In this document: positions 11,647-18,471 of the stretch, piece by piece
Layout of the letters: each line of letters begins with the position of its first letter
Numbering within the stretch: the first letter of the stretch is position 1
Assembly (NCBI GenBank): GCA_037139415.1
Contig: JBAXGN010000091.1
Location: forward strand, 1-30,116
DNA length: 30,116 nucleotides
Source of the DNA: Verrucomicrobiota bacterium
GTDB lineage: Bacteria; Verrucomicrobiota; Verrucomicrobiia; Limisphaerales; Fontisphaeraceae
Direction: 5' to 3'
The notes under the pieces: model-generated
The model's database searches: none
What the model was told of the DNA's origin: nothing
The model's input: the letters and a program-made list of their open reading frames with translations, nothing else
Translations under genes and position numbers: made by a program

Positions 11647-14193
11647 TCAATGCATTCCTGAATCGCGCGCTACCACGGTGTCGTAAAGACCGTAATGTGT
11701 GAGCCCTTCATGGCTCTCGATGCCCGTGTAGCACAGCGAGGAATCCTCATAGCGCCGGAAGGCGAAGACGGCTTGATTCATCTGCTCGGTATTAAACACC
11801 TTGAGATCCACGAGCAGGTGGAAATCCTTTACCGTCAGACCGGTCACGGTCAGAAACAAGTCCGTTTCAATCTTGGTAATGACGTCCTGGAGCGTGTTCT
11901 CCCGGAAGTCGGTCAGATACATGAACGCCGGAATGCGCGTGGCGAACTTGATGAGCTTCTCCTGCACCAGCTTCCGCTTGGACTTGTATTCCTTTTCCTC
12001 ATCGGTGAGTTGCTTCTTCTCCTTTGCCGACAAGTCCTTCTCCTTCGCCTTGTTTTTGAGGGCTTTGACCTTCTCGCTCTTGTTGATGATGGTCTCGATA
12101 ATGTTGTTGCCCAGAGCACGCCAGCCTTCGATGCGCTCCACGGCGGCCATCGCCTCGGGGTTGTCGAGGACACGGCGCAGAGTGTCGTTATCCACGTTCA
12201 CCAGCATGGCTGATTCCCACTTGCGCGCCAGCAGCGTGGCCGAGGTTCCGGCCATCGCGATATCGAGAATGCCGCCCGCATCAATCTGTGTCATGTTCGC
12301 GCCGTCGTAGGCCAGCACCGGCAGGAACGATACCAGATCCTTCACGGCGTTCTCCGGATTCGGCTCGCCGGGCGAAAGACCGATCCCGTATTCCGAGAGC
12401 TGCCGCAACGCGCGCGTGGGCGCAAAGTCGAATACGAAACAGACCGGCTTGAGGATTTCCTCCGCGTTCGGGGCGTCGCCGTTGGGGTTCTTGATGGACC
12501 ACGGCGATTGCACGCGAAACGCCGACTGAAAATACGTCTCCGGCGATTTGAGGTTCCGCAGCATCAAGATGGATGACCACTGCGGCACGGTGATGCCGGT
12601 GGTGAGCTTGCCGCAGGAGAGCGTGATGGTCTTGGTGTCGAAGCCGCTGCCGATGGCCTGACGCACGGGCGGCAGCGCGTCCAACCCGATGCCTGCCGAA
12701 GAGCCAGCCGCGACGATCGCATCGTAATCACGCCAGAAAACGTTTTGCTTCTCGCCGAGCAGGTTCGCCATCGCGTGACAGGCCGCGACATTGGGCAGGA
12801 ACCAGAACGAATGCTGGAGATACGGCAGCAGGCGCACGTCCGAATACGGGAACGGCGGCCGCGTGCCGGTCTTGAGATACTCCACCGCCTTGGACGCATA
12901 CCCGCCGCGAATGATGTTCAACCACTTTTGCACATCGCTCTTGTGTTTGAACTGCGCCTTCTTCCCTTCACCCGAGGCCTCGAAGAAGGCGTTGAGGTCG
13001 AACTCATTAAACTCCCCGCCGCTTGCGATGGCCACCAGCTCTTCTGGCATCTGATACGTGAGCAGCCGCATCTGCGGCAGCGCGCCGTAGGGGTTCCACT
13101 TGCCAGGGGTCTTCGCCGCGAACTCTTCCTTGGCGCGTTGCTCATCGGTGTAGGTCCAGTTGAAAATCTGTTCCTCGATGAATTCGCCCGTGGCCAGCGC
13201 CTTGAACGGCGTGCCGGAGAGGTAGAGGTAGGCCTTGGTGGTGATGGGCAGGAACTCCGTCTCGTTCTCCGAGAGTTCGCTCAGGTCCTCGTTCACGTCT
13301 GCCAAGTCGGCGGCGTATTTGAGTTCTTTCTTGGCCACCGCCTCTTCTTCGCCCTCAAATAGTTCCTTGGCCGTGTCGCGCCACGCGCCGAAGTGGTATT
13401 CGTCAAACACGACCAAATCCCATTTCACCCTATGAAGCCACGTGTTCTTCGGCTTGATGTTCCCCACCTCGTCGCGCCCCAGCAAATCCTGGAACGAACC
13501 GAAATAGACGAGCGGTTTCTTGGCCGAGATCCGCGTCGGATCGCTCTCGGAATTGCGGGAGAGGTATTGCCAGCCGTCGAAATCCACGTGGGATTCGAGG
13601 TCCGTCTGCCACGCATCTTCCACCGCCGGCTTGAATGTCACTACCAGCACGCGCTTGGCCCCGAGTTTCCGCGCGAGCTGATAACTGGTGAAGGTCTTGC
13701 CAAAGCGCATCTTCGCGTTCCACAGGAAGCGCGGGACGGCGTGCATGTCTTCGTTCCAGATGGAGTGGAAATAAGCGTGGGTCTTCTCCACGGCGGCGCG
13801 CTGCTCGGCGCGCATGGCGAAGGTCTCCGAATGCGTGCCGGTGAACCGCTGCCCGGTGCGCAACTCGGTGAGGACGGTCTTCACGTCCTTGAGCGTGCAG
13901 CGCACCCATTCCAACTCGTTATTCTCAAAGCCTTTCTTGACGAGGGCGGCGCGCACCTCGTGATCGGTGAAGGTTGTGCCGTCGGCGCGCTCGGCGACCT
14001 CATCCAGCTCAATGGTATAGTTCTTGATATTGGCGGTCTTGAGCTGCTCGGCGATGCGCTGCTTAACGTCGCGCGTGGTCTGCCCCACCTTGAGCAGGTC
14101 CTTGTGGGCCTTGTCAGCGATGGAGTAGGCATAGATGCGCGGCCGGGCTTCCGGCTTCAGCGCAAGGATTTCTTCGATGGTGGGCTTACTCAT
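11647..14193 (-). CDS. T5orf172 (GIY-YIG superfamily) nuclease-like domain fused to an SF2 DEAD/DEAH-type helicase (ResIII-like) plus ~300 aa C-terminal region; putative restriction/defence helicase-nuclease
   Basis: Start MSKPTIEEI at 14193, overlapping the Fic stop as ATGAGTAA. N-terminus IYAYSIADKAHKDLLKVGQTTRDVKQRIAEQ is a T5orf172-type GIY-YIG module. Walker A KMRFGKTFTS, motif II VVFDEYH, motif VI-like FQSAFRVQS. C-terminal Lys/Glu-rich coiled-coil segment. Confidence 0.85.
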   Translation of the reverse strand: MSKPTIEEILALKPEARPRIYAYSIADKAHKDLLKVGQTTRDVKQRIAEQLKTANIKNYTIELDEVAERADGTTFTDHEVRAALVKKGFENNELEWVRCTLKDVKTVLTELRTGQRFTGTHSETFAMRAEQRAAVEKTHAYFHSIWNEDMHAVPRFLWNAKMRFGKTFTSYQLARKLGAKRVLVVTFKPAVEDAWQTDLESHVDFDGWQYLSRNSESDPTRISAKKPLVYFGSFQDLLGRDEVGNIKPKNTWLHRVKWDLVVFDEYHFGAWRDTAKELFEGEEEAVAKKELKYAADLADVNEDLSELSENETEFLPITTKAYLYLSGTPFKALATGEFIEEQIFNWTYTDEQRAKEEFAAKTPGKWNPYGALPQMRLLTYQMPEELVAIASGGEFNEFDLNAFFEASGEGKKAQFKHKSDVQKWLNIIRGGYASKAVEYLKTGTRPPFPYSDVRLLPYLQHSFWFLPNVAACHAMANLLGEKQNVFWRDYDAIVAAGSSAGIGLDALPPVRQAIGSGFDTKTITLSCGKLTTGITVPQWSSILMLRNLKSPETYFQSAFRVQSPWSIKNPNGDAPNAEEILKPVCFVFDFAPTRALRQLSEYGIGLSPGEPNPENAVKDLVSFLPVLAYDGANMTQIDAGGILDIAMAGTSATLLARKWESAMLVNVDNDTLRRVLDNPEAMAAVERIEGWRALGNNIIETIINKSEKVKALKNKAKEKDLSAKEKKQLTDEEKEYKSKRKLVQEKLIKFATRIPAFMYLTDFRENTLQDVITKIETDLFLTVTGLTVKDFHLLVDLKVFNTEQMNQAVFAFRRYEDSSLCYTGIESHEGLTHYGLYDTVVARDSGMH
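14101..14193 (-). repeat. junction repeat copy 1 (functional): ATGAGTAA overlap plus the first ~30 codons of the T5orf172-helicase gene
   Basis: The ~95 bp segment cttgtgggccttgtcagcgatgg...ggatttcttcgatggtgggcttactcat recurs at 15295-15399 (~85% identity) and in part at 16851-16892. Confidence 0.85.
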
Positions 14194-16892: not shown

Positions 16893-18471
16893 CGCTGTCG
16901 CCTTCGGCCATTGGGCGGATCATTGACTCAATGAAGGCGATTTCATCCTTCGTGAGCTTGTATTTTTGATAGAGGAGAGCGTCTGTCCATTTGCGACTCC
17001 ACTGCTGCTGCGGAAGCCATGAATACGTTCCCCGCGGCAAATCTTGCGTAATCTTCCGCAACGAAATGAGAAAGCGCGCAAATCGAGTGCGAAGATATGC
17101 GTCGCAACTCACCGCCTCTGTCTCGGATGAGAAAGGCCCGGCAACGACGTAAGTCTGAGTGCAGACAGAGTGTGGGCCAGCGACAACCCTAGGACCAAGG
17201 ACGTTCGCAGGGATCGCTCCACGCTCTCCGTATGCTTTCGGGAGAAGCAATTTCCAAACGGGAATGAGATGCCTGTTTTTTGTGACTGATGAATCTTTTA
17301 TCCAGCCGACTACGCGCTTCTGGTTAACGGACACGTGTAACTTGATGGCGCTCTTGAAGGGCTTCTCCTCGAAATCCTCGAAGTTCGTGGCGAGCCCGAA
17401 TGGCGTGTCTCCGCTCACGAGGTCTGCCACCGAAAGTTCATTCAAGCGTTGAACTTTCTTCAAAATGCTAACCGCACGCGTGTCTCGCACGAAGATGTCG
17501 AACTCATCCAGCTTGCGAGCAACAGGCTGCTGCTGTTCGTCTCCAAGCACGAGACTATATTTGCAGTCGCCTTGATGATTTCCGTCCCATAAGAAGTAAC
17601 CAACCCCACCTTCAAAATCTACGCCCGGAAATGCAGTGGACATCTTCGTGTAATCAACAAGGTGGCTGATGTGTCCGCCGGTAAGCATGGACTTTCGGAA
17701 CTCGTCCATGCCGCGTCCACCGGCCAGCCACCTTGACGGGATCACCATGCTCAGGAAGCGCGGGTCGAGCTTCAGCGCCTGCTCTACAAAAAGGTGGTAG
17801 ATCGAGGAGTCGCTCGAACCGCCTGCACCACCCTTCATTTGATACGGTGGATTTCCGATGATAACGTCGAATTGCATGTTGCCTCCAAATATCTCGGCGA
17901 GCCGAGTCTTGATGTTGTCGGTGTGAATGAACGCGTAGGCGTGGGTTTCAAGGCCTTTGGCCCGATCAAAAACGGATCGTCCGGCCCCACAATACTCGCA
18001 CTTGTCCCCATCCCAGGTGTGTTCCATGCGCTGAAACCAGATATTCCCATCATCGCTGGTGAAAGATTTGGCGATGGAGTGCTCACCTTTGGCGTGCTTG
18101 GAGCAATACACACTCCGGCGCGCCAGCAGGCTGGTGATTTGCGTGATGCCGATGCCGAACACCTGCTTTGTCAGGATGTGGTTCACGCGCTTCTGGAGAA
18201 CGGGAATCTCGCCCTCCAATCCCTTGGTGAGGCGGTTGGTGATCTCGCGCAGGAACACCCCGGATTTTGTGCAGGGATCCAGGAACTTCACCGTCTTGTC
18301 CGCCCATATATTTGCGCCATTGTTGTTCGCCGCCCACGCCTCGGTCAGCGTGTCCAGCATCCGGTTCGCGAACTCGGGCGGCGTGAACACCTCATCATTG
18401 GAGAGATTCGCGATGCACGTCAATACATCCGGGTTGCGGCCGCGCAGGGTGAATGACGCTTGTTCATTCAT
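16885..18471 (-). CDS. N6-adenine DNA methyltransferase, gamma class (motif order X-I-IV; M.TaqI/Eco57I-like) with ~300 aa C-terminal putative target-recognition region
   Basis: Start MNEQASF at 18471 with an AGGAG-like RBS. Motif X DEVFTPPEF, motif I FLDPCTKSGVFL, motif IV DVIIGNPPYQ. The ORF-track start at 18501 is less likely. Confidence 0.85.
   Translation of the reverse strand: MNEQASFTLRGRNPDVLTCIANLSNDEVFTPPEFANRMLDTLTEAWAANNNGANIWADKTVKFLDPCTKSGVFLREITNRLTKGLEGEIPVLQKRVNHILTKQVFGIGITQITSLLARRSVYCSKHAKGEHSIAKSFTSDDGNIWFQRMEHTWDGDKCEYCGAGRSVFDRAKGLETHAYAFIHTDNIKTRLAEIFGGNMQFDVIIGNPPYQMKGGAGGSSDSSIYHLFVEQALKLDPRFLSMVIPSRWLAGGRGMDEFRKSMLTGGHISHLVDYTKMSTAFPGVDFEGGVGYFLWDGNHQGDCKYSLVLGDEQQQPVARKLDEFDIFVRDTRAVSILKKVQRLNELSVADLVSGDTPFGLATNFEDFEEKPFKSAIKLHVSVNQKRVVGWIKDSSVTKNRHLIPVWKLLLPKAYGERGAIPANVLGPRVVAGPHSVCTQTYVVAGPFSSETEAVSCDAYLRTRFARFLISLRKITQDLPRGTYSWLPQQQWSRKWTDALLYQKYKLTKDEIAFIESMIRPMAEGDSDE

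Follow-up and report, generated by a model that had tools for sequence, protein, structure and literature searches.

Nuclease-free MmeI-like methylases (YeeA), in every case flanked by genes for a helicase and a GIY-YIG protein, were described by Morgan et al. (2009), who proposed for these clusters a Type I-like restriction-modification (RM) system with single-strand modification, and also noted large single polypeptides in which nuclease, helicase and methylase are joined (PMC2731913). The cluster dnmA(yeeA)-yeeB-yeeC of Bacillus subtilis methylates GACGAG (PMC9973331). Enzymes of Type ISP (LlaGI, LlaBIII) and the helicase-containing 'Type IIG' enzymes carry all their activities in a single polypeptide. 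Here we describe a related locus on contig JBAXGN010000091.1 of a Verrucomicrobiota metagenome-assembled genome (MAG), GCA_037139415.1; the whole stretch of 30,116 nt that was analysed is called the window. Three core genes encode a small methylase-like protein (gene 1, MT237), an Eco57I-family adenine methylase (gene 2) and a protein joining a T5orf172/GIY-YIG domain to a superfamily 2 (SF2) helicase (gene 3, below called the helicase), and they lie on the minus strand together with several inserted genes and partial copies of the helicase 5' end. The locus probably constitutes an ATP-dependent RM-like system, a split and gene-permuted relative of the Type ISP and helicase-containing 'Type IIG' enzymes that has captured accessory genes at its junctions, and we put the probability of this at roughly 0.65.

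A conserved operon of three genes

Homologues of the helicase were sought in one genome per species, about 185,000 species genomes in all, where at least 596 loci matched, and the best 80 of these (L001–L080) were compared by tblastn and by clustering of open reading frames (ORFs), the clustering taking in 81 loci. The initial annotation had joined the methylase and the helicase into one module, and a survey of their co-occurrence agrees that they form one functional unit, with the methylase upstream of the helicase on the same strand in all 64 loci with room for it. The unit has three genes and not two, as the 214-aa methylase-like protein stands first, being found upstream in 60 of the 61 loci with room; the order is thus small methylase-like protein, Eco57I methylase, helicase. 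Across the loci the small protein shows 69–90% and the methylase 52–71% identity, and the layout of about 220, 500 (Eco57I) and 840 (T5orf172-helicase) residues holds also at 46, 39 and 32% helicase identity. Genes 1 and 2 overlap by ATGA (4 nt) and genes 2 and 3 by ATGANTAA (8 nt) in most loci. Since the latter overlap is canonical, the octamer ATGAGTAA, correctly reported in the initial annotation as shared by the methylase end (16885–16892) and the helicase start (14186–14193), is by its sequence taken to be the ancestral junction of genes 2 and 3.

None of the three core ORFs is disrupted in the window, nor in most of the 80 loci. Integrases and terminal repeats were sought around the unit, and the ORF clustering showed nothing conserved beyond the three genes; the flanks share sequence only inside small subgroups of loci. 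Loci L017, L022, L023, L048, L049 and L075 have in common a sequence of about 50–60 nt (...GTTAGCCCGCAATGACCACAAGGAAGCATCGCCCGGAATG...) directly 5' of gene 1, perhaps a leader, perhaps the tail end of a preceding gene. A Pseudidiomarina MAG contig of 5320 bp (L076) carries a circularly permuted unit, in the order C-terminal part of the methylase, helicase, small protein, N-terminal part of the methylase, with an exact 77-bp terminal overlap and no replication gene, and is either a 5.2-kb circle or derived from tandem operon copies. A scan of the window for promoters and terminators gave site numbers no higher than in shuffled sequence.

Domains were assigned with Pfam and NCBIfam profiles and defence genes with those of PADLOC. 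MT237 shows the methylase motifs X (HGEVFTP), I (FLEsACGDGNFL), II (YGIELL) and III (HGDAL), and the catalytic motif (D/N/S)PP(Y/F), NPPY in the second gene, was not found in its alignment. Among the core proteins it is the only one that matches MmeI_Mtase, and weakly (E=0.0027). It has more than 8000 homologues, with 86–94% identity among the matches listed.

The ORF of gene 2 (18501..16885) encodes 538 aa from a TTG, and the likely start is an ATG at 18471, just preceded by AGGAGA, which gives 528 aa. The initial annotation had recognized an M.TaqI/Eco57I-like enzyme, and the Eco57I profile match (Table 1) leaves no need to revise this; the motifs FTPP, DPCTKSG and NPPY follow the order X-I-IV, PADLOC MTase_II is matched with E=5.8e-42, and NCBIfam gave only a sub-threshold Alw26I-type match. 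Column conservation is 0.65–0.96 in the N-terminal half vs 0.29–0.45 in aa 300–460, and at the nucleotide level five of six locus pairs have no match in the variable region, the sixth being 69% identical over 173 bp. Such a variable C-terminal region (aa ~300–460) is the expected signature of a specificity domain that recognizes the target, as judged from the alignment. Between motif I and NPPY lies an insert rich in Cys and His (CSKH ... CEYC; window 17990–18110, aa ~121–162), which may be a zinc-binding element.

The 848-aa product of gene 3 was initially annotated as a T5orf172/GIY-YIG module followed by an SF2 helicase core, and the profile searches bear this out: T5orf172 (PF10544) matches aa 21–110 with E=4.1e-7 and 30.9 bits, against a curated cut-off of 20, and ResIII matches with E=9.7e-6. 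The nuclease-like domain occupies aa ~18–112, and is followed by a Snf2-like SF2 translocase with the motifs GKT (165–167), DEYH (264–267) and QxxFR (556–560), and by a helical C-terminal domain. In an alignment of 38 homologues, down to 30% identity, Y21, K35, G165, K166, D264, E265, H267, Q556 and R560 are invariant, while G37, R46, E95 and T167 are kept in at least 90%. The Tyr of GIY (Y21), the YIG-like K-x-G (K35, G37), the Arg (R46) and the Glu (E95) are presumably the active-site residues of the nuclease domain. Both its profile score and its conserved residues place the N-terminal domain, as a prediction, in the GIY-YIG superfamily. A Foldseek search with the AlphaFold model of the helicase (pLDDT 81) gave Chd1, ZorD, RadD and SauUSI as best matches, and the modelled motor resembles Snf2-type translocases of double-stranded DNA and the motors of translocating restriction enzymes (LlaBIII, HsdR, Res). 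NCBIfam assigns no family to the helicase, and PDB sequence searches gave no solved structure for any member of its family. In a distant member (L085, 2688–7692, 39% identity) two tandem T5orf172-helicase paralogues follow the methylase, and are themselves followed by a gene for an Mrr-type nuclease.

A link to a known enzyme class is given by the PADLOC profile REase_MTase_IIG (PDLC03626, 1359 positions), which is derived from REBASE. The helicase matches its positions 180–798 (E=9.8e-35) and the methylase positions 863–1359 (E=1e-35), so that the homology covers both parts; the first ~180 positions are unmatched, and the proteins of the window are unfused. Fused relatives with 32–34% identity exist on plasmids of Enterococcus, Pediococcus and Lactiplantibacillus. 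Plasmid p211b-a of E. faecium encodes a 248-aa 'N-6 DNA methylase', 36% identical to the small protein of the window, and then, with an 8-nt overlap, a 1445-aa fusion in the order N-terminal domain, helicase, Eco57I methylase, recognition domain, of which the N-terminal ~660 residues align to the nuclease-helicase of the window and the C-terminal ~480 to its whole methylase. Because the profile spans both proteins and fused plasmid relatives exist, the window family should be a split, gene-permuted form of a single-polypeptide enzyme. The initial annotation had placed the architecture outside the REBASE standard, which does not agree with these matches.

The family is widespread. The helicase has homologues in more than 8000 protein clusters, each at least 90% distinct. 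In the best 80 loci the helicase is 82–92% identical in protein sequence, and these loci come from Verrucomicrobiota, Planctomycetota, Acidobacteriota, Nitrospirota, Chloroflexota, Cyanobacteria, Actinomycetota, Bacillota, Gemmatimonadota, Myxococcota and all proteobacterial classes; the three-gene layout is also found on plasmids of cultured Rhizobium, Sphingopyxis, Burkholderia, Deinococcus and Corynebacterium. Among 37 full-length helicase genes the protein identity is 80–94% across phyla and the identity at four-fold degenerate sites averages 0.49, with nonsynonymous (dN) and synonymous (dS) divergences of 0.09 and 1.1 by the NG86 method, a dN/dS of about 0.08, and synonymous sites near saturation. 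Because the synonymous sites have diverged to this extent, the similarity of the proteins is to be read as strong purifying selection on the whole 845-aa protein, together with horizontal transfer, and not as a clonal sweep; the four-fold identity and dS rule out recent clonal spread as its source. The GC content at third codon positions (GC3) of the helicase follows that of the host flanks only loosely.

Insertions and copies of the helicase start at the junctions

Most loci show an uninterrupted junction, and about 20 of the 66 loci taken into the insert survey have additional DNA at junction A (between genes 1 and 2) or junction B (between genes 2 and 3). By ORF sequence and clustering the inserts comprise RhuM, Fic, DUF1016, a VapBC-like pair, a MazF-like toxin and ImmA/DUF4411-like, AlbA_2-like, KilA-N-like, GxxExxY-like and DUF559-like genes, besides REP/RAYT elements. 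RhuM, Fic and DUF1016 correspond to the PADLOC candidates PDC-S05, SoFic/PDC-S04 and PDC-S02, respectively. The DUF1016 and Fic genes between methylase and helicase had from the start been regarded as secondary insertions, with relics of the direct junction preserved beside them, and both views are upheld by the profile matches (Table 1), by the uninterrupted junction elsewhere and by relics of ~38 bp (relic A) and 138 bp (relic B) of a kind that recurs in other genomes. The comparison added core gene 1, two truncated RhuM genes, the REP/RAYT element and the relics of the other genomes to what had been annotated.

There are exactly three copies of the octamer ATGAGTAA in the 30 kb, both strands counted, vs 0.3 expected, and none of 100 shuffled sequences reaches three. 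Besides the methylase stop and the true helicase start, where it is also the Fic stop, it is located at the stop of DUF1016 (15392–15399), and each copy is thus an upstream stop overlapping a helicase-type ATG, either the true start or a relic. A 26-nt stretch of the helicase 5' end is likewise present three times in the window, with none expected.

At junction A the ATG of RhuM-1 overlaps the MT237 stop (ATGA), and the 3' two-thirds of the gene are replaced by the REP-RAYT-REP element, in which an IS200-like Y1 transposase (RAYT, CDS 19070..18621) lies between inverted REP pairs, one repeat of 25 nt being 100% complementary. Related RAYT units with 83–86% aa identity are found at the same operon position in L004 and L036. 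At junction B relic A forms a 13-codon ORF (MSKPIEEILAPKP and a stop) whose ATG overlaps the methylase stop, and which ends 14 nt 5' of the RhuM-2 ATG with a GGAG between. RhuM-2 is 87–91% identical in nucleotides to the RhuM genes of L004, L007, L008 and L025 over 164 bp. The following DUF1016 gene, to whose product NCBIfam assigns no family, has ~15 helicase-like first codons, with the helicase 5' repeat found a fourth time, in part, at 16554–16581, and its stop overlaps the ATG of relic B. Relic B leads into Fic by an overlap of its TGA with the Fic GTG (GTGA), the start of Fic having been chosen to agree with its counterparts in L008, L031 and L053, and the Fic stop overlaps the helicase ATG. 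Relic B has Trp in place of the conserved Gly37, which indicates that this copy has decayed.

Table 1. Core genes, inserted genes and relics of the window; all features are encoded on the minus strand.
Feature	Position	Strand	Evidence
Core gene 3, T5orf172/GIY-YIG and Snf2-like SF2 helicase, 848 aa	11647..14193	-	Pfam T5orf172, ResIII
Fic (HPFLDGNGRIGR motif intact) with C-terminal winged helix-turn-helix (HTH), inserted	14186..15223	-	Fic E=4.3e-19; HTH_11; SoFic E=7.6e-45
Relic B, 138 bp of helicase 5' end and 37-nt spacer, 59-codon ORF	15220..15399	-	87% identical to true start
DUF1016/YhcG PD-(D/E)xK nuclease, 401 aa, inserted	15392..16597	-	YhcG_C E=5.8e-55; DUF1016_N E=1.7e-40; PDC-S02 E=3.7e-134
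Half REP element, truncates RhuM-2	16625..16727	-	direct repeat D2 and inverted repeat I3; 85% identical to 18528–18630
Truncated RhuM-2 (~36 N-terminal codons)	16729..16836	-	clusters with full-length RhuM of L004, L007, L008, L025
Relic A, first ~38 bp of helicase gene, 3-bp deletion	16851..16892	-	83% identical to true start
Core gene 2, gamma-class N6-adenine methyltransferase, Eco57I family	16885..18471	-	Pfam Eco57I E=4.6e-34
REP-RAYT-REP element	18528..19140	-	Y1_Tnp E=1.8e-22; inverted repeats I1, I2
Truncated RhuM-1 (~133 N-terminal codons), junction A insertion	19172..19570	-	Virulence_RhuM E=1.7e-14; PDC-S05 E=6e-46
Core gene 1 (MT237), methylase-like, 214–224 aa	19567..20241	-	weak Pfam N6_Mtase and MmeI_Mtase matches

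A relic after the methylase stop is found at junction B in most insert-bearing loci (L004, L007, L008, L014, L020, L053 and the window). L056 and L058 also have one upstream of the insert, in contigs that end before a recognisable methylase, and in L045, L060 and L078 no separate relic match was found. Relic lengths in the eight other loci range from 31 to 148 bp, and at junction A of L066 222 bp of the methylase 5' end are retained. The relic ORFs lead into the inserted gene by an ATGA or GTGA overlap, or end a few nucleotides before it; such overlaps are present in L008 and L053, and L056 has a second ATGAGTAA. The unit of relic A and RhuM recurs in L004, L007, L008 and L025, and the independently assembled L008 has the order methylase, relic, RhuM, relic, Fic, helicase, the same as in the window. 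Identity to the true start is 77% in L056, 83–87% in the window, 95% in L014 and 98.7% in L058, and because of this span the events should therefore be of different ages, or reflect recombination between diverged operons. For the window, the 83–87% identity rules out that the relics arose by fresh target-site duplication only; for L058 and L014 this is possible. In L058 (814–1105) a REP-like insert of ~138 bp lies between the copies of a 77-bp duplication of the helicase start, and of the long-target-duplication events in the set this one appears to be the youngest.

The starts of DUF1016 genes resemble the helicase N-terminus in the window (16554–16597), in L060 (8779–8830), in L078 (3369–3420; MNKSIEEILAPKP and DVLFGRVVSILEQ) and in L056 (316–360), which suggests that these genes were captured in frame together with the start codon and the ~15 first codons of the helicase gene. 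Taken with their relic, RhuM cassettes are 85–93% identical in nucleotides across loci of Verrucomicrobiota, Lentisphaerota and Nitrospirota vs 76–86% for the core genes, and the recognition domains of loci sharing such cassettes are unrelated. That the RhuM cassettes are more alike than the core genes of their loci argues that cassettes move between operons.

Upstream of core gene 1 the window resembles a defence island (20450–29584), with a PIN_3/DUF6364 toxin-antitoxin pair (20450–21099), an SPFH protein, an AAA_21/AbiEii-like ATPase (23134–23883), an AAA_14/DUF4143 ATPase (24024–25286) and an HD-domain protein (27624–29018) in a stretch of low GC content (0.43–0.49 vs ~0.59 elsewhere).

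Proposed mechanism and alternative explanations

In the mechanism that we propose, the Eco57I-family methylase would use its variable C-terminal domain to read a site that is probably asymmetric, and would mark the host DNA by adenine methylation, with the small methylase-like protein, which has no NPPY, probably acting as a partner that binds S-adenosylmethionine (SAM). At an unmodified site the methylase would recruit or activate the nuclease-helicase, whose Snf2-like motor would translocate on double-stranded DNA and whose N-terminal T5orf172/GIY-YIG domain would cut it. RhuM, since truncated by REP/RAYT, DUF1016 and Fic would have been captured at the operon junctions, each event leaving a helicase 5' relic behind. 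Because the core genes overlap, an insertion must duplicate the overlap to spare both neighbours, and the short ORF of the relic might then pass ribosomes from the upstream gene to the inserted one. Insertion could proceed by long target duplication or by Campbell-type integration via the conserved 5' segment, selection keeping those events that preserve coupling.

A further idea is that the helicase 5' end, and less so the methylase 5' end, serves as an attachment site that needs no integrase: defence cassettes bounded by copies of it would circulate between phyla and integrate by Campbell-type recombination or long target duplication, the leftover copy becoming a coupling leader ORF. We put this forward as a tentative and rather doubtful proposal. 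If it were true, the RM operon would be an integron-like platform for accessory immunity genes, and the cassette genes might back up an inhibited RM system, as PrrC does with EcoprrI. The duplicated gene starts provide a legible trace of the capture of accessory defence genes within RM operons.

Provided that the operon restricts DNA, it represents a very widespread family of translocating RM systems, present in nearly every bacterial phylum and on plasmids, with matches in at least 596 of the roughly 185,000 species genomes, that would use a GIY-YIG nuclease and need a partner resembling a methylase but predicted to be catalytically dead for want of NPPY. Cultured carriers include Rhizobium phaseoli, Sphingopyxis macrogoltabida, Deinococcus wulumuqiensis and Corynebacterium crudilactis.

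Several points weigh against an RM-like system related to Type ISP. The relation to Type ISP is one of fold and architecture alone, as seen in the structural model, and neither phmmer searches of the PDB with the helicase and the methylase nor a profile of the 38 helicase sequences gave a significant relative, LlaBIII included; the strongest PDB sequence match, a motif II stretch of RapA, has E=0.015 and is below significance. Motif I of the methylase (DPCTKSG) is atypical and no acidic motif II residue is evident, so that SAM binding may be atypical too. The AlphaFold model of MT237, from alignment rows all at least 85% identical, has a pLDDT of 59 and was not used for a fold search. The sequence is compatible with three routes for the capture of accessory genes: long target duplication, Campbell integration and homology-facilitated illegitimate recombination. 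For a defence gene the dN/dS of 0.08 across phyla is unusually low, and a further constraint may be at work. The literature search found no publication on the window family and no experiment on any member, and the nearest studied analogue, dnmA-yeeB-yeeC of B. subtilis, showed neither restriction nor phage defence (PMC9973331).

The low dN/dS and the result for B. subtilis also speak for the best of the alternatives, namely that the operon does not serve defence. It would then consist of a methylase with an epigenetic role, or an orphan one, beside a helicase-nuclease engaged in DNA repair or regulation, or would be what remains of a decayed RM system, as has been suggested for the B. subtilis cluster; strong purifying selection combined with conservation across phyla looks more like housekeeping than defence. 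We find this alternative unlikely. The window and most of the 80 loci keep all three ORFs intact, the spread over the phyla is patchy and includes plasmids, and the recognition domain of the methylase is hypervariable. The neighbours in the window are toxin-antitoxin and ATPase genes, and the captured accessory genes are the same as in Type I RM loci (PMC9881135). In Vibrio crassostreae, moreover, deletion of dnmA or yeeB is reported to have raised the sensitivity to some phage subclades (PMC9973331).

The initial annotation had proposed a distinct class, Type III-like or Hma-like and outside the architectures of REBASE, and this is very improbable given the REBASE-derived IIG profile that spans both proteins and the existence of fused relatives. 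A Type III system combines a beta-class Mod that has an internal recognition domain with a Res that has a C-terminal PD-(D/E)xK nuclease, whereas the window has a gamma-class Eco57I methylase with a C-terminal variable region and an N-terminal GIY-YIG nuclease, and so differs on both counts. As to Hma (helicase-methylase-ATPase), a PADLOC scan of the core proteins at E<=0.01 gave no match to HmaA, HmaB or HmaC, and the ORF clusters contain no conserved gene for a third, ATPase component. That the triple helicase start arose by assembly of strain variants into a chimeric contig, as might be feared for a MAG from a family abundant in metagenomes whose variants could co-occur in one sample, is hardly credible when the repeats (38 and 138 bp, 83–87% identical) are too short and diverged for k-mer joins, the reading frame is handed over exactly at every junction, and the same layout is found in the independently assembled L008 and relics in eight other assemblies.

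Comparison with known systems

The capture of accessory genes has two precedents. One, 'insertion with long target duplication', was recorded for RM units by Furuta, Abe and Kobayashi (2010, PMC2853133), and is marked by direct repeats longer than 30 bp around an insert without transposase or integrase, with an empty site in relatives. The present loci have repeats of that kind, of 38 and 138 bp in the window and 31–148 bp elsewhere, several pairs being only 77–87% identical, and the DUF1016 and Fic cassettes have no mobility gene. The events of Furuta et al. bring whole RM units into a genome, whereas here small defence genes enter an RM operon, always at a gene start, and the repeat identity of 77–98.7% also fits recombination between diverged operons.

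The second precedent is the Type I RM operons with embedded genes (PrrC, RhuM, Fic, DUF1016), in which RhuM, Fic and DUF1016 have been reported between the core genes (PMC9881135). The same accessory families are thus placed between core RM genes in both; the host RM family differs, and in the present operons the scars are visible, the 5' end of the downstream gene being duplicated and translational coupling retained. Accessory-gene capture is well known for Type I RM, and an explanation of its origin was not found in the literature, nor was a description of duplicated, coupling-preserving 5' ends as insertion scars in RM operons. The core unit itself is not of Type I, which has separate HsdS, HsdM and HsdR subunits.

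Type ISP enzymes share with the window family an SF2 translocase of double-stranded DNA and a gamma-class N6-adenine methylase with a C-terminal recognition domain. They differ in being single polypeptides, as are the 'Type IIG' enzymes, whereas three genes with the methylase 5' of the helicase are found in the window and in at least 60 loci. The nuclease of Type ISP is an N-terminal PD-(D/E)xK domain of the Mrr family, and that of the window is T5orf172/GIY-YIG, the Pfam scan giving no Mrr match. In Type ISP, cleavage results when enzymes translocating towards each other from head-to-head sites collide. The small methylase-like protein is an extra partner that always accompanies the window family, and LlaBIII has no detectable sequence similarity to the window proteins.

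DnmA(YeeA)-YeeB-YeeC has the same three activities in one operon, the same proposed Type I-like logic and, probably, single-strand modification. Its methylase belongs to the MmeI family and that of the window to the Eco57I family; compared by description, its helicase and T5orf172 domain are on separate proteins, with T5orf172 at the C-terminus of YeeC, whereas they are fused in the window with T5orf172 N-terminal, and no counterpart of the small methylase-like protein has been described for it. The general combination of a gamma-class methylase, a helicase and a GIY-YIG domain, which the initial annotation took to be distinct, is therefore not new, an RM type of this composition having been predicted in 2009 (PMC2731913), and what differs in the window family is the Eco57I-type methylase, the fusion of an N-terminal T5orf172 domain to the helicase, and the extra small protein.

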